DNA of 64,000 nucleotides from Candidatus Nanosyncoccus sp. (lineage in GTDB: Bacteria; Patescibacteriota; Saccharimonadia; Saccharimonadales; Saccharimonadaceae): positions 10,179-74,178 of the forward strand of contig JAZQXF010000038.1 of the NCBI GenBank assembly GCA_045632725.1, given 5' to 3'. Each line of letters opens with the position of its first letter. Position 1 is the stretch's first letter. Shown in pieces: positions 1,774 through 63,721 of the stretch. The translations under genes and the position numbers were made by a program. The notes below the pieces were generated by a model, which worked only from the letters and a program-made list of their open reading frames with translations, was not told the DNA's origin and made no database searches.

Positions 1774-2650
1774 TAGGCATATTATCCCACTGATATTTCC
1801 GAATAATCTCTTCAATGCAATCATCATACAATTTATCATCCTCAGATTCATTTCTTTCTTTCACATAAGACGCTTCAGAGAGTATTTTTGGACTTTCAAA
1901 AGTATAAGCCGGAACCTTTTCTTCTCCGCTTTGTCCAACTGATATAACACTCGTAATCTTCTTAAAACGATTCTGAGTTTTATCAAAAACCATACAGTCG
2001 ACATCACCATTCTCTGGCAAAACTATATGACAATATTCAAATTCGCCCTCATCGCGCCTCCCACGGATCGCCTCTTCCTGCAAAGAAAAGCCAACTAAAT
2101 CTGGTAAAGAATAGTTGCCATAAGATTCTGAAGCATTAGGATGTGTATGCCCAAGACTGACTAATGGTTTCATCCCGGAAGCCTTCATCTTATCAATATG
2201 ACCATTAATCGCTTGCCAATAATAAGTTAAAAGCATATTAAAATCCGCCGCCGAATCATCCGCCTCTAAATCAGGATTTTCATCATAAAACTTTCTCTTA
2301 AATTCGTCATTAATATCGATATCGCTACCAATTGCATTAAATAAATAGTTCCCATCCTGCACCCAACCCAATACTAAAAAAGAATGTTCTTTTTTGGTTT
2401 CAGCAGTTTTTCCCGCTAATTCCATCATTTTCTTATACACAGCATCGCTCATCACCATTGTTTTTCTAGAATTATCGATGTTTTCATGAAAAATAGAGAT
2501 TCTTGAACCTCTGTCTGCATCATGATACATTTTTAAGTTCCCAAGAATCTGTTGATTGTTGTTACCAGTCATCAAAGATTCAATAGTAGATATTACCCGG
2601 TCACTTTTTAAAAGCTCGCCAGGAGCAGAAGATTGGTCTATTGTTTCCAT
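1769..2650 (-). CDS. JAB/MPN (JAMM)-like metalloprotease domain protein
   Basis: 293 aa. Has an upstream Glu (KKEHSFLVLGW) and LGHTHPNASESYGNYSLPD, an HxH...SxxD JAMM-like metal site with non-canonical spacing. Leaderless-type -10 (catgTATAATataaggtATG). Confidence 0.4.
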   Translation of the reverse strand: METIDQSSAPGELLKSDRVISTIESLMTGNNNQQILGNLKMYHDADRGSRISIFHENIDNSRKTMVMSDAVYKKMMELAGKTAETKKEHSFLVLGWVQDGNYLFNAIGSDIDINDEFKRKFYDENPDLEADDSAADFNMLLTYYWQAINGHIDKMKASGMKPLVSLGHTHPNASESYGNYSLPDLVGFSLQEEAIRGRRDEGEFEYCHIVLPENGDVDCMVFDKTQNRFKKITSVISVGQSGEEKVPAYTFESPKILSEASYVKERNESEDDKLYDDCIEEIIRKYQWDNMPK

Positions 2651-2715
2651 ACCTTATATTATACATGAAAATATGTTATAATTATATCCACAATAACAGA
2701 TATCACAGATTGGTT

Positions 2716-3810
2716 ATGAATTTAAAGATCGGCATCGTAGGCCTCCCAAACGTTGGAAAGTCTACGCTATTTAATGCATTAACAAACGCTGGCGCTCTTG
2801 CCGCCAACTATCCTTTTGCTACCATCGAGCCAAATGTTGGCATCGTACCAGTCCCAGATGAACGCTTGGAGGTCCTCGCCAAAATGTACGATACCGACAA
2901 AGTCGTTCCCGCCACAGTCGAATTTGTAGATATCGCCGGCCTCGTAGCTGGTGCGAGCAAAGGCGAAGGTCTCGGCAACAAATTCCTCGCCCATATTCGC
3001 GAATGCCAAGCTATTTGTCATGTTGTTCGCGCTTTTAAAAATAATGATATAGTTCGCGCCGACAATAAGGTAGAAGATGACATTATAGCTCAAGCCAAAG
3101 AAGATATCGACATCATCAATCTGGAGCTTCAGCTTGCCGATGAGGAAACCAAAGCCAAAATTGAAGCCAAACGTAAAAAAGACCCCAACGATGAAAACAT
3201 CCCGTTCTTAACCGACAAACCCGTAATTTATATGTTTAATGTAGATGAACATGGTCTGACCGACCAAGGTTTGCAAGAAAAACTCTGCGATTTAGTCAAT
3301 GCAAGCAACAATCAAAATCGGCAACGGGTGACGGTCGTGGAGGGGGACCCCCAAAATCGCCTTAGCGATTTTGGGGGAGGAGAACGACCGGCAGGACCCG
3401 TTGCCCATAATAATTGCATTTTTATCAATGCCAAGCTGGAAGAAGAAATGTCCGGCATGTCTCGCGAAGAACGTAAAGAGTTTCTAAAAAGCTACGGTAT
3501 AGAACACGATGCTTTAGAAGAACTCATCAAAGCCGCCTACGACACTTTAGGCTTACAATCTTTCCTCACCGCCGGCAAAAAAGAATGTCGCGCCTGGACT
3601 ATCAAGAAGGGCTCCACCGCCCCACAAGCGGCCGGCACTATACATACCGATTTCGAACGCGGATTTATTGCCGCCCAAATCTGCAATTACGATGATTTAA
3701 AGACACTCGGTTCCGAACAAGCCGTAAAAGCCGCCGGCAAACTCCGCACCGAAGGCAAAACCTACATTATGCAAGATGGCGATGTAGTAGAATTCCGCTT
3801 CAACGTATAA
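2716..3810 (+). CDS. ychF: ribosome-binding ATPase YchF, carrying an in-frame ~29-aa palindromic-element insertion
   Basis: MNLKIGIVGLPNVGKSTLFNALT (P-loop) plus a C-terminal TGS-like ...GKTYIMQDGDVVEFRFNV. The ORF-track start 2641 reads through the promoter, so the true start is ATG 2716. Confidence 0.9.
   Translation: MNLKIGIVGLPNVGKSTLFNALTNAGALAANYPFATIEPNVGIVPVPDERLEVLAKMYDTDKVVPATVEFVDIAGLVAGASKGEGLGNKFLAHIRECQAICHVVRAFKNNDIVRADNKVEDDIIAQAKEDIDIINLELQLADEETKAKIEAKRKKDPNDENIPFLTDKPVIYMFNVDEHGLTDQGLQEKLCDLVNASNNQNRQRVTVVEGDPQNRLSDFGGGERPAGPVAHNNCIFINAKLEEEMSGMSREERKEFLKSYGIEHDALEELIKAAYDTLGLQSFLTAGKKECRAWTIKKGSTAPQAAGTIHTDFERGFIAAQICNYDDLKTLGSEQAVKAAGKLRTEGKTYIMQDGDVVEFRFNV
3320..3405 (+). 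mobile_element. GC-rich palindromic element (short form) inside ychF
   Basis: GGCAACGGG-TGA-CGGTCGT...CCCCCAAAATCGC-CTTA-GCGATTTTGGGGG...ACGACCG-GCAGGA-CCCGTTGCC. GC-rich island in an AT-rich gene. The frame stays open. Confidence 0.8.
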
Positions 3811-5268: not shown

Positions 5269-5742
5269 CTAGGCTTCAATTTTTTCTTCTGCCTTCTCAG
5301 CCTCAGCAGTTTCGGTCTTTACTTCTTCCGGAGCCTCTACTACCTCTATTTCTGGCTCTTCCACTGTCGTATCGTTTACCGCTAAACGATCAAAATCTTT
5401 TCCACGCAACCTTGCCGACTTACCAGAACGATCCCGCAAATAAGAAAGGTTGTTTCGGCGCACCTTAGAACGCTTAGTAATCTCAATCTTTTCTACTAAC
5501 GGCGAGTGAATCAAATAAGATTTCTCCACTCCTACACCAGAAGTCACCTTGCGAACCACAATCCTTGCTGTATGTGACTCTTTACGATCCACCCGAATAA
5601 CCACACCTTCAAAAGTCTGCAAGCGGAATTTACTGCCTTCCTTAATCTTCTGGGTAACTTTTACGGTATCACCAGATCGAACATCTACCACTGCTTTCTT
5701 CTTTTGTGCATCACCAATTTGCTTTAAAATTGAAAAACTCAT
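5269..5742 (-). CDS. rplS: 50S ribosomal protein L19 with acidic C-terminal extension
   Basis: GDTVKVTQKIKEGSKFRLQTFEGVVIRV...VRKVTSGVGVEKSYLIHSPLVEKIEI is the L19 signature. Confidence 0.9.
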   Translation of the reverse strand: MSFSILKQIGDAQKKKAVVDVRSGDTVKVTQKIKEGSKFRLQTFEGVVIRVDRKESHTARIVVRKVTSGVGVEKSYLIHSPLVEKIEITKRSKVRRNNLSYLRDRSGKSARLRGKDFDRLAVNDTTVEEPEIEVVEAPEEVKTETAEAEKAEEKIEA

Positions 5743-14068: not shown

Positions 14069-14488
14069 ATGAAGATCAAATCAGAGCAAGAAATGTTAGA
14101 GTTTGGCAAAACCTTTGCCCAATCATTAGATAGCCAAGTTATAGAACTCATTGGCGATGTCGGTGCCGGCAAGACCACTTTTACTCGTGGCCTATCTGAA
14201 GGACTTGGTATTAAGAATACTATCACTAGCCCAAGTTTTACTATCTCCAAATCCTACGCACTTCCTAGCGGCAAAGGCAATCTTATCCACTATGACTTTT
14301 ATCGCCTTTCCAACCCCGGCCTCATGCTCGATGATTTACGCGAAAACCTCCAAGACCCAAATAACATAATTATTATTGAATGGGGCGAGTCCATCGAAAA
14401 TATCTTACCAAAAAATCGACTCAAAATTGAAATAAAATATAACGATGATAACACCAGAAATCTCAAAATCATAGAAAGCAAATCATAA
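14069..14488 (+). CDS. tsaE: tRNA t6A37 biosynthesis ATPase TsaE
   Basis: IELIGDVGAGKTTFTRGL, HYDFYRL. Start 6 nt after TGTGTTATAAT (14057-14062). Confidence 0.85.
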   Translation: MKIKSEQEMLEFGKTFAQSLDSQVIELIGDVGAGKTTFTRGLSEGLGIKNTITSPSFTISKSYALPSGKGNLIHYDFYRLSNPGLMLDDLRENLQDPNNIIIIEWGESIENILPKNRLKIEIKYNDDNTRNLKIIESKS

Positions 14489-14515
14489 ATAACTTTTTAA
14501 AAACATAAAAAGACA

Positions 14516-14652
14516 CAACTATGGGTGGCGCCAATATCCCAACGCAGCGGCATTCCGGAGCGCGGCAGCGCGAGGATTAGTGCTGTCCGCCCATGGCGAT
14601 GGGCCGGACAGACACGGCCGCAAGTGGGATATGGCGACAGGCCCCATAGTTG
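14516..14652 (+). mobile_element. GC-rich palindromic element (intergenic copy, tsaE-tsaB spacer)
   Basis: CAACTATGGG-TGG-CGCCAATATCCC...GTCCGCCCATGGCGATGGGCCGGAC...GGGATATGGCG-ACAGGC-CCCATAGTTG. Confidence 0.8.
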
Positions 14653-14690
14653 CAGCATAAATAAAGTTCATCTCGTGTTATAATTTATCT

Positions 14691-15023
14691 ATGAAATTAT
14701 ACCTAGATACCTCCACCCCAGAAACCATCCTCAAGCTAAACGAAAAGGAATACAAATACACTTTTGCTAACGATCTCGCCGAAAAATTATTGCAATTCAT
14801 TCACGACAAGCTCGCCGAAAACAATAAAACTTTTAAAGATGTCACCGAAATTACCTTCATGTCCGGCCCCGGCTCTTTCACTGGGCTCCGCATTGGCGCC
14901 GCCATAGTTAACACCTTAGCCTCAGATTTAAATATTCCACTATACGACCATCATGGCAAAAAGCACCAAATCATCTTACCAGATTACGGCCGTCCTGCCA
15001 ATATTTCCAAACCTCGCAAATAG
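14691..15023 (+). CDS. tsaB: TsaB-like protein, N-terminal domain only (110 aa)
   Basis: MKLYLDTST...ITFMSGPGSFTGLRIGAAIVNTLA matches the TsaB N-terminal ASKHA half. The protein is about half the usual length. Confidence 0.65.
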   Translation: MKLYLDTSTPETILKLNEKEYKYTFANDLAEKLLQFIHDKLAENNKTFKDVTEITFMSGPGSFTGLRIGAAIVNTLASDLNIPLYDHHGKKHQIILPDYGRPANISKPRK

Positions 15024-17117: not shown

Positions 17118-19034
17118 TCAACGCTTCAACATTACAGTAAATGCTTCACTCGGGATATCTATCTTACCAAATCTCTTCATTCTCGCCTTACCACGCTTCT
17201 GTTTTTCTAGTAATTTTGCCTTTCTGTCTCTATCCCCAGTGTGAATTTTCACAGTCACATCTTTTCTATATGCTCCAATAGTCTCTCGCGCAATAATCCT
17301 TGCGCCTATCGCCGCCTGCAAAGCCACTTCCCAGTTCTGTCGCGGTATCACCTCCTTCAATTTCTTAGTAGTTTCCCGCCCTATCGCTTCCGCCTCGCTT
17401 CTATGACACATCACCGATAGTGCATCAATTTTATGTCCACCCACCAAAAAATCTACCCTCACCAAGTCCTCTGCCTTATATTTACCTAGCTCATAGTTAA
17501 ATGAAGCATATCCCGAAGTTGCCGATTTTAGCTGATCGTAAAAATCAGTTAGCAGATTTGCCATCGGCGCCTCAAAATCTATCACTGCCCTATCTTCGAT
17601 ATAGCTTAAATTTGTCTGATGCCCACGTTTCTCATTTATTAAATTTAGTACATTGCCAATCATATCCTTTGGCAAAATAATTTCCCCCTTCACCCATGGC
17701 TCCCTAATTTCCCTCACCTCCGAAGCATCTGGCAAATCTGCCGCCGATTTGATTTCCAAAATTTCACCATTATTCATCACCACTTCATAATTTGTCGATG
17801 GATTAGTTACGATGAGATCTAGCCCAAACTCTCGCTCCAGCCTCTCTCGAATAATATCCATATGAAGAAGCCCTAAAAATCCAATTCTTAGGCCAAATCC
17901 TAGCACCGGCGAATTCTCTGGCTCGAACCTAAGCGCCGAATCCGAAAGCGCCAATTTCTCAATTGCCTCTCGCAGATCTTTATATTGATCGTTTGACACC
18001 GGGAAAAATCCAGCATACACAAATGGCAACACATTCTTATACCCCGGCAAAGCTTCGCTAGCCGGATTCTTTACTAAAGTAACAGTGTCACCCACCTTTG
18101 CCTCACGCGTAGTTTTCAAATTTGTTACAATGTAGCCAATTTCACCTGCCTTCAAATTTTCCCTCGGCGACATTTTGGGTGTCAACACTCCAACTTCTAG
18201 CGCTAAACCCTTAGTCCCTGCTGCCATCATCAAAATTTCAGAATTTTTCGCGATCTCCCCCTCAAAAACGCGTATATATAGCACTACCCCACGATAATCA
18301 TCGAAATACGAGTCGAATATCAATGCACGGGTGGCCGAAACCTGCTTTTCCAGAATCATTGAATGATTTGAATTTTCAACACCTATATTCCTGCCGGGCC
18401 GGACAGGTTCGCCCCGTAGGGGCGGTTCTACCCGCGACCCAGTGTATGAGGTGCTTGAAAATTCAAGTCCTGATTCTGGAAAAGCAGGTTCGGACAGGAC
18501 CCGTGCATTATTATTTGCTATGATGGCATCCAATATTTTATCAACACCATATCCAGTTTTTCCAGATGCCTCAATAATATCTTCTCGTTTGCATCCAAGC
18601 AAATTAATTATCTCAGCTGCGGTTTTATCTACATCTGCCGCCGGCAAATCAATCTTGTTTATTACTGGAATGATTTCCAAATCTTGCTCTATAGCCAAAT
18701 ATACATTTGCCAGTGTCTGTGCCTGTATCCCCTGTGTTGCATCCACCACCAGCACCGCCATCTCAACCGCCTGCAAACTCCGGCTCACTTCATACGAAAA
18801 GTCCACATGCCCCGGAGTGTCAATCAGGTTCAAAGTATAGCCTTTCCAGTGCATTGTCACCGGCGCAAGTTTAATGGTAATCCCTTTTTCTCGTTCTAGC
18901 TCCATGCTGTCCAGAAGCTGCGACTTCATCTCCCGCTTTTCTACCGTACCAGTTAGCTCCATCATCCTATCCGCAATCGTGGATTTTCCATGATCAATAT
19001 GCGCAATGATGCAAAAATTCCGTATCTTATCCAT
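17118..19034 (-). CDS. lepA: translation elongation factor 4 (LepA), carrying an in-frame ~60-aa palindromic-element insertion
   Basis: IRNFCIIAHIDHGKST, DTPGHVDF, NKIDLP, and a C-terminal LepA-specific domain. 638 aa versus ~600 usual. Confidence 0.9.
   Translation of the reverse strand: MDKIRNFCIIAHIDHGKSTIADRMMELTGTVEKREMKSQLLDSMELEREKGITIKLAPVTMHWKGYTLNLIDTPGHVDFSYEVSRSLQAVEMAVLVVDATQGIQAQTLANVYLAIEQDLEIIPVINKIDLPAADVDKTAAEIINLLGCKREDIIEASGKTGYGVDKILDAIIANNNARVLSEPAFPESGLEFSSTSYTGSRVEPPLRGEPVRPGRNIGVENSNHSMILEKQVSATRALIFDSYFDDYRGVVLYIRVFEGEIAKNSEILMMAAGTKGLALEVGVLTPKMSPRENLKAGEIGYIVTNLKTTREAKVGDTVTLVKNPASEALPGYKNVLPFVYAGFFPVSNDQYKDLREAIEKLALSDSALRFEPENSPVLGFGLRIGFLGLLHMDIIRERLEREFGLDLIVTNPSTNYEVVMNNGEILEIKSAADLPDASEVREIREPWVKGEIILPKDMIGNVLNLINEKRGHQTNLSYIEDRAVIDFEAPMANLLTDFYDQLKSATSGYASFNYELGKYKAEDLVRVDFLVGGHKIDALSVMCHRSEAEAIGRETTKKLKEVIPRQNWEVALQAAIGARIIARETIGAYRKDVTVKIHTGDRDRKAKLLEKQKRGKARMKRFGKIDIPSEAFTVMLKR
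18325..18506 (+). mobile_element. GC-rich palindromic element (long form) inside lepA, antisense to the gene
   Basis: GCACGGG-TGG-CCGAAACCTGCTTTTCCAGAATCA...GCCCCGTAGGGGC...TGATTCTGGAAAAGCAGGTTCGG-ACAGGA-CCCGTGC. Nested stems, and the frame stays open on the minus strand. Confidence 0.8.
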
Positions 19035-22518: not shown

Positions 22519-22612
22519 ATCCTAAATTGATTCTAGCATACAATTTTTAAAAATCAATTATTTTTATTTTAAATAAATTTAGTTGTATCGTCAATCCCTC
22601 CCGAATTTAATT

Positions 22613-23431
22613 ATGGAAGATCAAATTATTTTAATCGATAAACCCGCCGGCATTTCTAGCTTTGGCGTGGTAGCCAAAGTTCGCGGGCAACTAAAAGCCG
22701 AGTTCGGTCACAAAGTCAAAGTCGGCCACACCGGCACGCTCGACCCTTTCGCTACCGGCCTTCTCATTTTGCTCTCTGGCAAAATGACCAAAAAGTCAGG
22801 TGAATTTTTAAAACTTGATAAAGTTTACGAAGCTACTTTGAAGCTCGGCTACACTTCCACCACTGGCGACCCCGAAGGAGAAATCACAGAATACCCTTTC
22901 TCAGAGCATAGCGAAGCTTTTCCGCAGGAAAAGCTGAGTAATTCACCGGATTTTTACAACATTTCACCTCTGGAAAAATCAGAGAAACAGCCTCAACAAT
23001 ATCCAAACGAAGGGGGTCCGGAGCTTGGCAAAGCGAGGAGTAGCGCCGCCCGCCCATGGCGATGGGCCGGGCGGACGCGCCCCGAGTTGGATACTGTTGA
23101 GGCTGCCCTTAACTCATTCGTAGGCAGAATTATTCAGACTCCGCCCAAATTCTCCGCCATCAAAATCAATGGCCAACGTGCCTACAAATTAGCCAGAAAA
23201 GGCACCGACTTTGAAATCCCCAGCCGCGAAGTCGAAATCTACAATATTGAAATCCTAGCATATGATTACCCAGAGCTCAAAATCCGCGTTCATTGCAGCA
23301 GCGGCACTTATATCCGCACTCTTGCCGAAGATATTGGCAAAAAGCTCGGCACTGGCGCCTACCTCACCGCACTTCGCCGCACCAAGATTAGCAACTACAA
23401 TATTCAAGATGCCAAAAAACTTATGTTATAA
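22613..23431 (+). CDS. truB: tRNA pseudouridine-55 synthase TruB, carrying ~55-60 aa of in-frame palindromic-element sequence
   Basis: IILIDKPAGISSFGVV, GHTGTLDPFATGLLILL (catalytic Asp), IIQTPPKFSAIKINGQRAY. Confidence 0.85.
   Translation: MEDQIILIDKPAGISSFGVVAKVRGQLKAEFGHKVKVGHTGTLDPFATGLLILLSGKMTKKSGEFLKLDKVYEATLKLGYTSTTGDPEGEITEYPFSEHSEAFPQEKLSNSPDFYNISPLEKSEKQPQQYPNEGGPELGKARSSAARPWRWAGRTRPELDTVEAALNSFVGRIIQTPPKFSAIKINGQRAYKLARKGTDFEIPSREVEIYNIEILAYDYPELKIRVHCSSGTYIRTLAEDIGKKLGTGAYLTALRRTKISNYNIQDAKKLML
22890..23105 (+). mobile_element. composite palindromic-element insertion inside truB
   Basis: 22989-23105 aligns over ~105 nt with the interior of the 14516-14652 copy (shared core CCGCCCATGGCGATGGGCCGG) but has different, still complementary, outer arms CAGCCTCAACAATATCCAAAC / GTTGGATACTGTTGAGGCTG. 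22890-22985 adds further hairpins (AGCTTTTCC-GCA-GGAAAAGCT; GATTTTT...GAAAAATC). Confidence 0.7.
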
Positions 23432-26551: not shown

Positions 26552-27679
26552 ATGCGCATCAACGAAAATATTTTAATCTCTAGTCTTACCACCATGCGCC
26601 TTGGTGGCCCAGCCCGCTATGTCCTAGAAATAGAAAATCCCGCCGATATTCCCGATGCTTATGGCTTCGCCGCCACTTACCACCTTCCCACCTTTGTACT
26701 CGGCTACGGCGCCAACACCATCGGCCACGATGAGGGCTTCAATGGCGTTATCATCATCAACCGCATGCGCGGTATTACCGATTTATCACAAGAGAACAGC
26801 ACATGGATGGGTGACGCCAATGGGGGGACCCCCGCTGCGCGCAGGCGCAAGCCGAGCACAGTGGGGGAAACTTTGGCGGCAGGCCCCATCCAGTATATTA
26901 AAGTCATGGGCGGCGAGTACTGGGATGATGTCGTAGCTTACGCTTGCGAGAGAAACCTCACCGGTATCGAAGCACTAAGCAAAATCCCCGGCCTCGCCGG
27001 CGCCGCACCAGTACAAAATATCGGTGCTTACGGCCAAGAAATCGCCGATACTTTAGTCTCTATCGAAGTTTACGATACTATCACCCACACTTTCAGGACT
27101 CTCACCCACGATGACCTCGGCTTTTCTTATCGTAAAAGCATTTTAAATACCACTGAAAAAAATCGCTACTTCGTTATTTCTATCACTCTCGCTTTACACG
27201 AAGGTAAGATGCAGCCTCCATTTTATCGCTCTATCGAAAGTTACGCCGCCGAACACAATCTTACCGATTTCTCCCCTCAGGGCATCCGTTCCATCGTTAG
27301 CACCATTCGTGCCGACAAGCTTCCTGATCCACTAGAAAAGGCCAGCTCCGGCTCCTTCTTCAAAAATATCTACCTCACCAGAGAAGAAGCCGAGCTCGCC
27401 GAGGCCAAGGGCTACCCAGTCTACCACGGCAAAGATGGTCACAAGATTAACTCCGGATGGCTTATCGAACATGCCGGCTTCTCTGGCCAACTCCTTCATG
27501 GCATGCGAGTAAACCCTAAAGCCGCCCTTGTCCTTATCAACGAGTCCGCCAAAGGCTATCAAGACCTCGCCGCAGCTCGTAGCGAAATCACCAACAAAGT
27601 TTACGACCTTTACGGTTACTGGCTAGAGCAAGAGCCTGTCGAAATCATCAATCCCTCTAAGCCGGGAGATCTGCAATGA
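26552..27679 (+). CDS. murB: UDP-N-acetylenolpyruvoylglucosamine reductase MurB, carrying an in-frame ~30-aa palindromic-element insertion
   Basis: LTTMRLGGPARY, LGYGANTI, IPGLAGAAPVQNIGAYGQE, GSFFKN. 375 aa, which is long for MurB. Confidence 0.85.
   Translation: MRINENILISSLTTMRLGGPARYVLEIENPADIPDAYGFAATYHLPTFVLGYGANTIGHDEGFNGVIIINRMRGITDLSQENSTWMGDANGGTPAARRRKPSTVGETLAAGPIQYIKVMGGEYWDDVVAYACERNLTGIEALSKIPGLAGAAPVQNIGAYGQEIADTLVSIEVYDTITHTFRTLTHDDLGFSYRKSILNTTEKNRYFVISITLALHEGKMQPPFYRSIESYAAEHNLTDFSPQGIRSIVSTIRADKLPDPLEKASSGSFFKNIYLTREEAELAEAKGYPVYHGKDGHKINSGWLIEHAGFSGQLLHGMRVNPKAALVLINESAKGYQDLAAARSEITNKVYDLYGYWLEQEPVEIINPSKPGDLQ
26804..26892 (+). mobile_element. GC-rich palindromic element (short form) inside murB
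   Basis: TGGATGGG-TGA-CGCCAA...GGGGGGACCCCC...TTGGCG-GCAGGC-CCCATCCA. Shares GGGTGACG, GGGGGACCCCC and TGGGGGA blocks with the ychF copy. Confidence 0.8.
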
Positions 27680-34300: not shown

Positions 34301-35320
34301 TTAACCGATATGGTGCTCTTTTAGCTCCTCCGGTGTCGGTGAACGCTCTATCTCGCCATCTTTCCACCAGTAGTACTCTATTTCATAGAGTAATTCACTA
34401 CTGGCATAACTGCCAGATAATGTATATGCCTCCGCCTGATCCTGGCAAAACATTCGTTCTGTTCTGCCATCTTGCAGATAGAACGAATAGGTCTTTCTCA
34501 GACCATCTCGCGGACCATCCGCCACCCGGCAAATGGCGGACTCATCTAGGAAGCTCACAAAGCTGCCCTTTTGCCACTTAACATATACCTTTTGCCACTG
34601 ACCAGCAGAAAGCTGTTCAGCGACATTGACGTTCCATGTAACTTCCCACTTTCCTGTCGCTACATCTTTGTAGAAGTAGCCGATACCATCCCCATCGGGG
34701 ACAGCCCTGCTAACTGCAAATGGCCCAGGCACAAGGTTGTTAGACACAGGATTGGAGTTAGATGTCGCAGGTGCGACAGGCGCAGGCGCCGATTGCGTAA
34801 GCTGCTCCTTGACTTTCTTCATCTCATCCTCCAGTGTTATCAGGCGATCATGATAGCTGGCCGATTCGCTCTCCATCTTTGCTAAGCTATCTTTCTGAGC
34901 ATTCAGTTCACTCTCATAGCTAGCTAGCCTGTTGGTGAGCTCGGTTTTCACCGCATCGAGCATGTCACAGATTTTTGTGACAGCATTGGCGGATTCAAAT
35001 CCGGGCGTAGCTTGCCCATTCGAATGAATCGTCTGCGACTCTGCTGTAGTCTTGGGCTGCTCCTTCTTGGGAGCAGGAGCGGGCGTTGCAGGTTTAGACT
35101 GCTGTACAGACTGAGGAACAGAAGCGGATGCGGCGGGCTGAGGCGCAGGAGCGGGAGCGGGCGTTGCCGGCGTAGCCTGCTGTGCAGGCTGGCTCGTGGG
35201 AGTCGGTGCTGCAGACTGTGCAGGCACCTTACCAGAGGCATTAGCCTCCATGGCAGAAGCTTCAATCGGCAAGTTACCTCTGTCTTTCTTCTTCCAAAAC
35301 GGTGCTTTCTTGGATAACAT
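34301..35320 (-). CDS. hypothetical protein (Pro/Ala-rich N-terminus, coiled coil, globular C-terminus)
   Basis: 339 aa. Consensus promoter 35393-35421, SD taagggggaaaattgttATG, terminator 34213-34242. The most GC-rich gene in the window by eye. Confidence 0.55.
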   Translation of the reverse strand: MLSKKAPFWKKKDRGNLPIEASAMEANASGKVPAQSAAPTPTSQPAQQATPATPAPAPAPQPAASASVPQSVQQSKPATPAPAPKKEQPKTTAESQTIHSNGQATPGFESANAVTKICDMLDAVKTELTNRLASYESELNAQKDSLAKMESESASYHDRLITLEDEMKKVKEQLTQSAPAPVAPATSNSNPVSNNLVPGPFAVSRAVPDGDGIGYFYKDVATGKWEVTWNVNVAEQLSAGQWQKVYVKWQKGSFVSFLDESAICRVADGPRDGLRKTYSFYLQDGRTERMFCQDQAEAYTLSGSYASSELLYEIEYYWWKDGEIERSPTPEELKEHHIG

Positions 35321-60653: not shown

Positions 60654-60711
60654 CAACAAAAAAAACACCCGCTAGAGGTGATGTGCTATTCTGGCGGAAA
60701 GGACAGGATTC
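60654..60711 (-). repeat. partial duplicate of the tRNA-Ser 3' end (21 nt) plus its downstream terminator region
   Basis: caacaaaaaaa-cacccgctagaggtgatgtgctattc-TGGCGGAAAGGACAGGATTCG is repeated at 60732-60790, where it continues into the intact tRNA. Confidence 0.85.
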
Positions 60712-60769
60712 GCATCGTTAGATTCGAATCCCCAACAAAAAAAACACCCGCTAGAGGTGATGTGCTATT

Positions 60770-60855
60770 CTGGCGGAAAGGACAGGATTCGAACCTGCGG
60801 ATGTTTCCATCTCTGGTTTTCAAGACCAGTGCCTTCAACCACTCGGCCACCTTTC
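60770..60855 (-). tRNA. tRNA-Ser (TGA)
   Basis: Acceptor GGAAAGG/CCTTTCC, anticodon loop CTTGAAA, long variable arm GATGGAAACATCC, CCA encoded. Confidence 0.9.
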
Positions 60856-60951
60856 CACCAATTATTATAACATACTAGAACACTCAAAATCAATCCCCCA
60901 CCTTTAATATATCACACTTATGCTAAAAAGTCAACTATTAAACCATCAAAT

Positions 60952-63285: not shown

Positions 63286-63362
63286 GCACCCGTAGCTCAG
63301 CTGGATAGAGCATCAGTTTCCGGAACTGAAGGTCACACGTTCGAATCGTGCCGGGTGTACCA
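63286..63362 (+). tRNA. tRNA-Arg (CCG)
   Basis: Acceptor GCACCCG/CGGGTGT, anticodon arm TCAGT-TTCCGGA-ACTGA, CCA encoded. Confidence 0.85.
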
Positions 63363-63404
63363 AAATACTTTAAAAGAAAGCTTGCTTTGTTTTAAAGTAT
63401 TTTA
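63362..63404 (+). terminator. long AT-rich hairpin after tRNA-Arg(CCG)
   Basis: AAATACTTTAAAA-N14-TTTTAAAGTATTT (13-bp perfect stem). Confidence 0.6.
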
Positions 63405-63405
63405 A

Positions 63406-63445
63406 GCACCGCCCGGCTAGATAGCCGATCGTGCCGGGTGTACCA
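63406..63445 (+). repeat. tRNA-Arg(CCG) 3'-end duplicate forming an acceptor-stem-like minihelix ending in CCA
   Basis: GCACCGCCCGG-CTAGATAGCCG-ATCGTGCCGGGTGTACCA. The last 20 nt are identical to the tRNA 3' end at 63343-63362. Confidence 0.75.
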
Positions 63446-63455
63446 AATAACACTC

Positions 63456-63532
63456 GCACTCGTAGCTCAGCGGATTAGAGCACTTGTCTTCGGAACAAGG
63501 GGTCGTGGGTTCGAATCCCTCCGAGTGTACCA
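63456..63532 (+). tRNA. tRNA-Arg (TCG)
   Basis: Acceptor GCACTCG/CGAGTGT, anticodon arm CTTGT-CTTCGGA-ACAAG, CCA encoded. Confidence 0.85.
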
Positions 63533-63571
63533 AATATTATAAATGAGAGTTTACTCCCATTTATAATATTT
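63533..63571 (+). terminator. long AT-rich hairpin after tRNA-Arg(TCG)
   Basis: AAATATTATAAATGAGAG-TTTA-CTCCCATTTATAATATTT. Confidence 0.6.
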
Positions 63572-63644
63572 GTAACGAGGTTGGAGATTATCTATCCCTC
63601 CAAATATACCATTTTCCCAATTCTATGATATAATATAAATAAGT

Positions 63645-63721
63645 GGTACCGTAGCTCAGCTGGTTAGAGCGTGGGACTCATAAGCCCAAGGTCACTGGTT
63701 CAAGCCCAGTCGGTACTACCA
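63645..63721 (+). tRNA. elongator tRNA with CAT anticodon (Met, or Ile2 if lysidinylated)
   Basis: Acceptor GGTACCG/CGGTACT, C11:G24 (elongator type), anticodon loop CTCATAA, T arm ACTGG-TTCAAGC-CCAGT. Confidence 0.8.

Follow-up and report, generated by a model that had tools for sequence, protein, structure and literature searches.

Here we describe a hairpin-forming DNA element in the lepA gene of Candidatus Nanosyncoccus sp., a gut Saccharibacterium with a genome of ~42% GC, together with the repeat family to which it belongs. The element lies in a 64,000-nucleotide stretch of contig JAZQXF010000038.1 (assembly GCA_045632725.1), the whole of which is referred to here as the window. It is one member of a multi-copy family that is carried by gut and rumen Saccharibacteria (Nanosyncoccus-like) and that lies predominantly on one strand relative to GC skew, irrespective of the direction of transcription. 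The interpretation that we prefer, at a probability of about 65%, is that these are modular, non-autonomous, GC-rich palindromic repeats that would grow by fold-back synthesis at the replication fork, be locked to one replication strand and, within genes, be filtered for an open reading frame.

The lepA-borne element is a GC-rich island at positions 18322–18509 of the window. On the + strand this segment is predicted to fold into one long hairpin of −106.3 kcal/mol (z −11.45; none of 200 shuffled sequences folded as well), and the − strand reaches −101.8 kcal/mol (z −10.8). The initial annotation had placed the element at 18325–18506, antisense to the gene, and both points are borne out, those coordinates falling inside the full stem. 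Its polarity is given by an asymmetric terminal motif, which assigns it to the + strand, here the C-rich strand, with a motif-to-motif span of 18329–18502. The 5′ motif, GGGTGGC (18329–18335), whose reverse complement GCCACCC supplies the A-T-R codons of lepA, pairs with the 3′ motif GACAGGACCC (18493–18502), leaving a 3-nucleotide (nt) GGM bulge and a purine–purine mismatch. Within the motifs stands a perfect 20-nt inverted repeat (left arm 18339–18358, right arm 18471–18490), which encloses an inner module (18358–18470) made of an AT-rich stem and a GC-rich tip (GCCCCGTAGGGGC). The element thus combines the terminal motif with an AT-rich stem in the middle and a GC tip that does not branch; it lacks the three-way-junction core carried by most relatives.

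The host open reading frame (ORF; 17118–19034, − strand, 638 residues) is LepA, also known as EF4, and matches PDB entry 3CB4 at an E value of 8e-188. Residues 1–172 align to residues 1–177 of Escherichia coli LepA and residues 235–636 to residues 191–592, so that the element, at residues of about 173–234, sits between the G domain and domain II. By this alignment the linker has 62 residues against 13 in E. coli, close to the ~60 and ~13 given initially, and the frame is open throughout, with exactly the translation quoted at that stage. The same annotation held that the element replaces the linker. It does sit there, but it is not a simple replacement: the host T-R-A-L codons (ACCCGTGCATTG) form one side of the outer stem, and the N-A-R-V codons upstream are an inverted copy of them. 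Since the outermost stem overlaps host codons, the exact ends of the element cannot be fixed. An AlphaFold2 model of LepA with the insert gave it no predicted structure, in a model that was poor overall (mean predicted local distance difference test score 44, shallow alignment).

Two conserved modules define the family. The terminal motif has the form GGG-TGRC-stem ... stem-G-RCAGGM-CCC, a short helix with the GGM bulge and a purine–purine mismatch that itself covaries (TGAC with GGCA, TGGC with GACA); a reading of this motif as a K-turn was rejected. The core is a three-way junction of ~73 nt, in which YCC-GGA-G..loop..C-GA-GGR is followed by the junction and by a long stem tipped CCCGU-GRMG-ACGGG; it contains GNRA (GGCA) and UNCG (UACG) loops and a tandem G-A motif. 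Two samples were searched: 80 lepA loci of other Saccharibacteria species (1.41 Mb; the lepA-locus sample) and 80 independent metagenome loci retrieved with a degenerate pattern on both strands (0.49 Mb; the metagenome sample). A covariance model found 73 copies of the core in the window plus the lepA loci (1.48 Mb) and 93 in the metagenome loci. Copies were counted by covariance-model and motif searches; motif-free hairpin censuses, seeded on inverted repeats or based on local folding, missed branched or imperfect copies or merged neighbours and were not used. Family elements measure 67–190 nt and are mostly intragenic. The covariance-model search of viral contigs returned no core, and no phage or plasmid among the viral contigs and plasmids searched carries the element.

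The stems of the core covary strongly. In the seed alignment, compensatory double changes occur in 11 of 19 pairs; in the independent set they occur in 15 of 19 pairs (360 cells), and 98.2% of cells are paired, compared with 32–40% in slid controls. None of 500 shuffles reached the observed values. Almost all changes go from one Watson–Crick pair to another, G-U and A-C cells being nearly absent, and such near-exclusive Watson–Crick exchange is what homogenization of the arms by template switching predicts (PMC8794818, PMC8604942).

A few copies bear on how modules travel and grow. Locus L067 (L-numbers denote individual loci) holds two identical cores 3 kb apart, at 2335–2407 and 5350–5422, in two different genes (a 796-residue ORF and lepA), the clearest sign of recent copying within a genome. 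At the tsaE–tsaB site, L002 carries the long form that is also found in lepA (14349–14523) and the window carries a core-bearing element (14518–14650), with the same terminal motif and on the same strand; the different cargo at orthologous sites implies that sites are re-used and that modules are exchanged or nested. Some cores are longer, at 97–138 nt (L017 2279–2389, L019 9862–9971, L076 14827–14933, L023 14337–14433 and L159 7680–7817), and in these the long stem apparently holds, nested in its tip, a further hairpin that makes up the extra length (as read in L017 and in part of L019). This suggests that hairpin tips are preferred sites of further insertion or growth.

We assigned replication direction by a GC-skew proxy. 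In the window the skew is negative in every 2-kb bin (−0.11 to −0.42), regions with + strand genes included, and over all loci ~73% of coding bases lie on the G-rich strand; on these grounds the G-rich strand is taken to be the leading strand. Copies with the terminal motif then divide into 14 on the C-rich strand and 1 on the G-rich strand, the latter with mismatches and probably spurious, and all 8 copies of the long-form inner module, which occupy 3 sites, are on the C-rich strand. For the core the counts are 54 C-rich, 16 G-rich and 1 flat in the lepA-locus sample (53:16 in a second tally) and 56 C-rich, 4 G-rich and 14 flat in the metagenome sample, and 109 of 129 informative copies across both (~2 Mb) are on the C-rich strand. 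Orthologous redundancy was removed by grouping copies into 38 host-gene families, which yields the safer figure: the copies fall mainly on the C-rich strand in 28 families and mainly on the G-rich strand in 1, with 9 families uninformative (binomial p 1.1e-7). A first clustering of host proteins had merged unrelated genes through insert-encoded peptides and was redone with a longer minimum alignment length. The copies are thus not randomly oriented in either 80-locus sample.

Relative to the host gene there is no such preference, with the core in sense in 13 families and antisense in 15. Of the C-rich-strand cores, the lepA-locus sample has 36 that are antisense to the host gene and 14 that are sense; in the metagenome sample 22 are antisense, 23 sense and 11 intergenic. 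The lepA gene itself is instructive: where it lies on the G-rich strand, the core is antisense to it in most genomes, and in L060, L071 and L079, where lepA lies on the C-rich strand, the core is sense. That the core switches with the strand of lepA indicates that its orientation follows the replication strand and not transcription. From the shared polarity of four copies the initial annotation had argued for a DNA-level, possibly replication-strand-biased process rather than a function in mRNA, and the family-level counts support that argument. Host genes are over-represented on the C-rich (lagging) strand, at 13 of 28 families against 27% of coding bases (p about 0.02). No resemblance to KOPS or Chi-like polar motifs was seen in an informal comparison, and these were rejected as a cause of the bias.

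The two strands of the core also differ in stability. The core-sense strand gives the more stable fold in 155 of 163 copies with DNA parameters (mean difference from the complement 1.5–2.9 kcal/mol) and in 151–152 of 163 with RNA parameters; in most copies the weaker fold would therefore lie on the lagging-strand template. In the logic of Trinh and Sinden, strand-specific loss of hairpins reportedly leaves the weaker fold on the lagging-strand template. Whole hairpins are also seen to flip in place (below), so strand-specific loss or flipping could produce the orientation bias equally as well as insertion could. The best-conserved copies are less biased (44:13, C-rich:G-rich) than weaker copies (65:7), and this, taken with the flips, favours a continuing filter or directional flipping.

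We then compared the lepA linker across relatives. The nearest LepA proteins belong to gut and rumen Candidatus Saccharibacteria (Nanosyncoccus-like metagenome-assembled genomes); they range from 588 to 687 residues at 84–89% identity, and the whole of this variation falls at the linker. About one third of the 80 lepA loci have an unstructured linker of 13–18 residues, and in the remainder hairpins of several unrelated sequence classes, all folding strongly (−50 to −110 kcal/mol), encode 25–68 residues. Because relatives with 76–89% identical LepA have either the 13–18-residue linker or hairpins that differ in sequence, length or orientation at this one site, the linker is an insertion hotspot. 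Orthologues free of the insert therefore exist, and among the LepA orthologues checked none was found to carry the same residues without the repeat. The inner module of the window copy is 88–92% identical over its inner 107 nt to the lepA inserts of L001–L003, to which the window insert is orthologous, and 75–80% identical to copies at two other sites (L002 14381–14490 and L035 1775–1881); over its full length the element is ~80% identical to the intergenic copy at L002 14349–14523. Truncated remnants of inserts persist in lepA of some species (FSSSGLEFLSTSYAGHPAEP in L008 and VETKPIFSSEKKDLVSPT in L013), and the short linkers of L014, L033, L013 and L041 are themselves small hairpins.

Comparison of empty and filled sites reveals where the arms come from. 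The empty site of L005 and the filled site of L006 share the ERGPAP(S/A)(F/L)LG codons, which constitute the 5′ arm of the L006 hairpin, and the 3′ arm (encoding A-L-R-K-E-V-L-G-P) is an inverted copy of those codons. Distant relatives whose LepA has no insert also conserve the motif (I/V)-E-x-x-P-x-P, which is thus host sequence. Stems begin within the host V-E-x-x-P codons in 31 of 34 lepA hairpins, and in 21 of the 34 they extend to the T/R-A-L codons on the opposite side. Hairpins also invert as units: at one and the same lepA site, L048 and L020 carry in reverse complement the inserts that L036 and L006 carry, the L048 and L036 inserts being identical at 116 of 132 positions as reverse complements and at 87 of 132 in direct alignment. 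Template switching is described as creating and extending hairpins (PMC8794818, PMC13100816) and as giving one-step compensations, arm extension and inversion between arms, inside coding genes as well (PMC8794818, PMC8604942, PMC13100816); fold-back inverted duplications are described in a further source (PMC11724301). The flank inversion, perfect compensation, arm extension and inner inversion seen here are together the published signatures of template switching and fold-back synthesis.

Within lepA the inserts keep the frame. Among the 42 inserts of at least 25 residues the frame in use is open in 40, and the comparison frames are open in 14 of 84 cases (other sense frames) and 35 of 126 (antisense frames), that is 17–28%. 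From these open frames it appears that the hairpin inserts are translated and not removed, and that they are tolerated. The two linkers with in-frame stops are L053 10526–10612, a terminal-motif element with 2 stops, and L040 909–1037, which is AT-rich with 4 stops; these may be recent insertions or disruptions, split or pseudogenized lepA genes, or assembly errors. In Logan contigs from gut, bovine, pig and manure metagenomes, which are fragmentary and have no bearing on excision or transcription, none skips the element. In the public runs X1–X4, contigs over window positions 17900–18900 are interrupted at the element, and its inner part has a depth raised 3- to 8-fold, as fits a repeat present in many copies on which short-read assemblies fragment.

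These observations have to be set against other explanations of the same element. A functional RNA, whether it acted within the transcript of lepA or as a small RNA in its own right (candidates being a ribozyme, an excised intervening sequence and a regulatory structure), would account for a strongly conserved, covarying structure, for the GNRA and UNCG loops and tandem G-A motif of the core and for the very stable RNA fold (−106.3 kcal/mol on the + strand). We nevertheless think it very unlikely, because the orientation relative to genes is random, lepA mRNA carries the reverse complement of what ychF and murB mRNAs carry, G-U pairs are almost absent from the stems and the 40 of 42 open frames would be needless if the insert were excised. 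Rfam 15 at gathering threshold detects only tRNAs in the whole window, and at E ≤ 1 it has no match in 14300–14800 or 18250–18580; the open frames, random gene orientation and lack of an Rfam match together argue against an intron, a ribozyme or a regulatory RNA, and readings as an intron or intervening sequence, riboswitch or ribozyme were rejected. Hardly any credence attaches to an adaptive, lineage-specific LepA domain under protein-level selection in place of selfish DNA. The frame is open, the peptide FSSSGLEF..TSY..RNIRVENSN is kept among the closest LepA relatives and an inter-domain linker is a position at which an insertion could modulate function, but LepA proteins 84–89% identical lack the insert, have unrelated peptides or carry the same DNA flipped, and no fewer than 38 unrelated gene families, as well as intergenic DNA, contain these DNA modules. 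Constraint on the DNA hairpin can account for the conserved peptide, and the structural model (mean pLDDT 44, poor overall) shows no structure for the insert. A purely local origin, in which repeated rounds of template switching would enlarge a small quasi-palindrome where it stands, without transfer between loci, draws on the arms that copy local flank in inverted form, on the small hairpins in the short linkers of four loci and on the power of template switching to create and extend hairpins (PMC8794818, PMC13100816). It is most improbable all the same, given that the 73-nt core and the terminal motif recur in many unrelated genes and genomes, that the window lepA element resembles an intergenic copy of L002 over its full length and that two genes of L067 hold identical cores. 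An assembly artefact was rejected, the family being present in more than 100 independent assemblies.

A weightier alternative places the strand lock at insertion. An enzyme acting on single-stranded DNA, either an HUH Y1 transposase like that of IS200/IS605 or an integron-like, structure-specific recombinase, would recognize the folded element and set the orientation by inserting it into a single replication strand, and template switching would only remodel the arms. The lagging-strand template is the target of IS608, whose copies are biased in their genomic orientation. The near-absolute bias among families, the 14 C-rich terminal-motif copies against one dubious G-rich copy and the asymmetric, unpaired conserved bases (the GGM bulge, the covarying purine–purine mismatch, GGA/GA and the bases at the junction) would suit recognition of a folded single strand by an enzyme, such bases being of the kind read by proteins in known folded-strand systems. 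Yet no such enzyme was identified, in work that made no systematic search for one; there is no left-end/right-end (LE/RE) architecture and no conserved tetranucleotide target; in-place flips mean that orientation at insertion is not frozen, so a continuing directional force would still be needed; and the weaker bias of the best-conserved copies is the opposite of what pure insertion bias predicts. We regard this alternative as possible and clearly less probable than the fold-back, strand-filtered family. More speculative still is that these are replication-fork-coupled hairpin elements of an undescribed kind, for which a putative structure-specific enzyme would read the core and terminal motif as folded single-stranded DNA, insertion would be primed by fold-back with inverted duplication of the target, and modules would nest in hairpin tips. 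If so, tip nesting and fold-back insertion would explain both the re-use of sites, as at the lepA hotspot, and the near-absolute strand lock.

In the reading that we prefer, the asymmetric terminal motif and, in most relatives, the ~73-nt core would be copied between loci at the DNA level. The hairpin would grow around these modules by fold-back or template-switch synthesis that copies neighbouring host sequence in inverted form, and the same process would keep the arms perfectly complementary and occasionally flip the whole hairpin. These events would take place on single-stranded DNA at the replication fork. Surviving copies would be locked to one replication strand, the better-folding strand lying on the C-rich strand, which would be the leading-strand template. 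Within genes, the survivors would be copies with an open frame in permissive surface linkers, where they would be translated; in LepA the G domain and domain II would thereby be separated by about 48 additional residues, which are probably disordered.

Several points weigh against this reading. No transposase, recombinase or partner gene was identified, and no systematic search for such genes was made; no direct target-site duplication was seen at the flanks compared. Mobility would follow from the distribution of copies and from one identical pair rather than from an observed event, just as translation is read from open frames. Replication direction is approximated only through the proxy of GC skew, the difference in stability between strands is small (the 1.5–2.9 kcal/mol given above), and many copies are orthologous, so that copy-level counts overstate independence. 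Intergenic cores show no bias in the lepA-locus sample (4 C-rich against 6 G-rich) and are biased in the metagenome sample (11:1). Conserved unpaired nucleotides and GNRA/UNCG-type loops in the core would suit an RNA too.

Within the window, the RCAGGMCCC motif has four matches, all on the + strand (0.82 expected; four were reached in 2 of 100 shuffles), each paired with an upstream GGGTGRC and complementary flanks. The initial claim of four canonical copies with a single polarity whatever the strand of the gene is thereby confirmed. Besides lepA, the copies are a short form in ychF (3320–3405, motif to motif 3326–3399, +; sense and in-frame in ORF 2641–3810, +, Pfam), a short form in murB (26804–26892, motif to motif 26809–26887, +; sense and in-frame in ORF 26552–27679, +, Pfam) and an intergenic copy between tsaE-like and tsaB-like genes (14518–14650, motif to motif 14523–14645, +; genes from the ORF list), whose terminal motif encloses a three-way-junction core at 14547–14621. 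A related hairpin in truB (22988–23105, +; sense and in-frame in ORF 22583–23431, +, Pfam) has arms that differ from those of the terminal-motif copies and a core (23010–23083) in common with the tsaE–tsaB copy. Relative to solved homologues, YchF, TruB and MurB have about 30–60 extra residues at the element positions, MurB having about 30 more than solved MurB structures. Three of the four intragenic copies of the window are in + strand genes.

Other repeats in the window are of different kinds. Adjacent direct repeats of 67 nt (94% identity) and 73 nt (100%) occur at 555–688 and 1636–1770, 1081 nt apart, each with the look of a TATAAT box, a GC hairpin and a T run in succession; duplicated promoter/terminator units and cassettes for small RNAs are possible readings. 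A perfect 59-nt direct repeat (60654–60712 and 60733–60791) overlaps the 3′ half of a tRNA (60774–60856, −) and is a partial tRNA duplication, perhaps left behind by an old integration. Inside a tRNA cluster (63286–63718), 20 nt from the 3′ end of a tRNA are present in duplicate (63345–63364 and 63428–63447). GC-rich tandem repeats at 35031–35286 (44-nt units, 84% identity), inside ORF 34301–35320 (−), fold strongly and are no member of the hairpin family.

Selfish DNA in protein genes has been known mostly from Rickettsia and from mitochondria, and the family extends it to the Candidate Phyla Radiation (CPR): in ultra-small gut symbionts, essential genes for translation, the cell wall and tRNA modification carry hairpin inserts that are apparently translated. 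The strand lock, in 28 of 29 informative families and independent of transcription, is an unusually clean signal of strand-dependent generation or filtering of hairpins, and the lepA linker, with dozens of independent empty, filled, flipped and partly deleted states, is a comparative system for the birth, growth, inversion and loss of palindromes. In practice the elements interrupt assemblies, add to the length of proteins and give unrelated proteins a spurious likeness.

Judged by analogy, the nearest known class would be the Rickettsia palindromic elements (RPEs), with mitochondrial GC clusters and hairpin elements also close. RPEs are in-frame, translated and tolerated in housekeeping proteins at positions compatible with the fold (PMC10969869). 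The likeness is one of functional class and not of sequence family: RPEs are palindromic, ~100–150 bp long and devoid of coding capacity of their own, and they lie in-frame in many unrelated housekeeping genes of a reduced-genome, host-dependent bacterium, adding extra peptide segments (PMC10969869). The same review, on MITEs (transposable elements of the miniature inverted-repeat kind), does not use the words ‘orientation’ or ‘replication’ (PMC10969869). In the present family, too, a palindromic non-coding repeat of ~70–190 bp is present in many copies and lies in-frame in unrelated genes with the frame kept open. It differs from RPEs in its Saccharibacteria (CPR) host, in forming GC-rich islands in a 42% GC genome, in its modular make-up (three-way-junction core plus asymmetric terminal motif, with arms that include inverted host flank), in the lepA linker as a single site that different species fill with different elements, facing either way, and in its strong lock to one replication strand.

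The yeast var1 GC clusters and the double-hairpin elements of Allomyces are GC-rich palindromic mini-elements in AT-rich, reduced genomes, and they can be in-frame. We know of no transposase for mitochondrial GC clusters or hairpin elements and, to our knowledge, neither a replication-strand lock nor inverted duplication of host flank has been reported for them or for repetitive hairpin-forming elements (RHEs). RHEs are described from sponge mitochondria (PMC2800124). Both groups resemble the present family as spreading GC-rich palindromes that are sometimes in-frame in protein genes; they differ in being organellar and unrelated in sequence.

Members of IS200/IS605 are recognized as a folded single strand and coupled to the fork, and hence show an orientation bias relative to replication. 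PATEs, which derive from IS200/IS605, share this bias with the present family (28:1 families). Both differ in architecture, the present elements being one long hairpin with one symmetry centre and lacking LE/RE pairs of subterminal hairpins, and in contrast to PATEs, which insert 3′ of a fixed tetra- or pentanucleotide, the flanks here have no common target sequence. REP families are treated in a review (PMC3733652). REP and BIME sequences, mobilized by RAYT, are 20–40 bp and extragenic with a GTAG/CGTC tag, whereas the present elements are 67–190 nt, mostly intragenic and untagged. No TnpA or RAYT gene was found, no systematic search for either having been made. Classical MITEs, derived from insertion sequences with a DDE transposase, share the terminal inverted repeats, the whole element here being an inverted repeat, but the flanks are inverted and not direct (AAC/GTT, GGC/GCC and CAC/GTG), and the difference between an empty and a filled site is an inverted copy of host flank.

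The attC sites of integrons are imperfect palindromes of 57–141 bp in which structure and not sequence is conserved and the terminal structures are variable and sometimes branched; the active strand is distinguished by its extrahelical bases, and it matters which way a site faces relative to replication. The R″/R′ boxes (RYYYAAC/GTTRRRY) are absent from the present family, whose ends are GGGTGRC...GRCAGGMCCC, and its copies lie in housekeeping genes without cassette arrays; no intI was seen, and none was searched for. Hairpins made by template switching, as presented in four papers (PMC8794818, PMC8604942, PMC13100816, PMC11724301), share perfect compensations, arm extension, inner inversion and occurrence in coding genes. 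The published process is local, whereas here conserved modules recur at dozens of loci, which requires copying between loci in addition to template switching. Full-text literature searches returned no paper linking Saccharibacteria to palindromic, in-frame or miniature inverted-repeat elements. What sets the family apart from all the classes compared is the combination of a conserved branched core, arms that contain inverted host flank, re-use of sites with cargo swaps and flips, a strong replication-strand lock that does not depend on transcription and a Saccharibacteria host.

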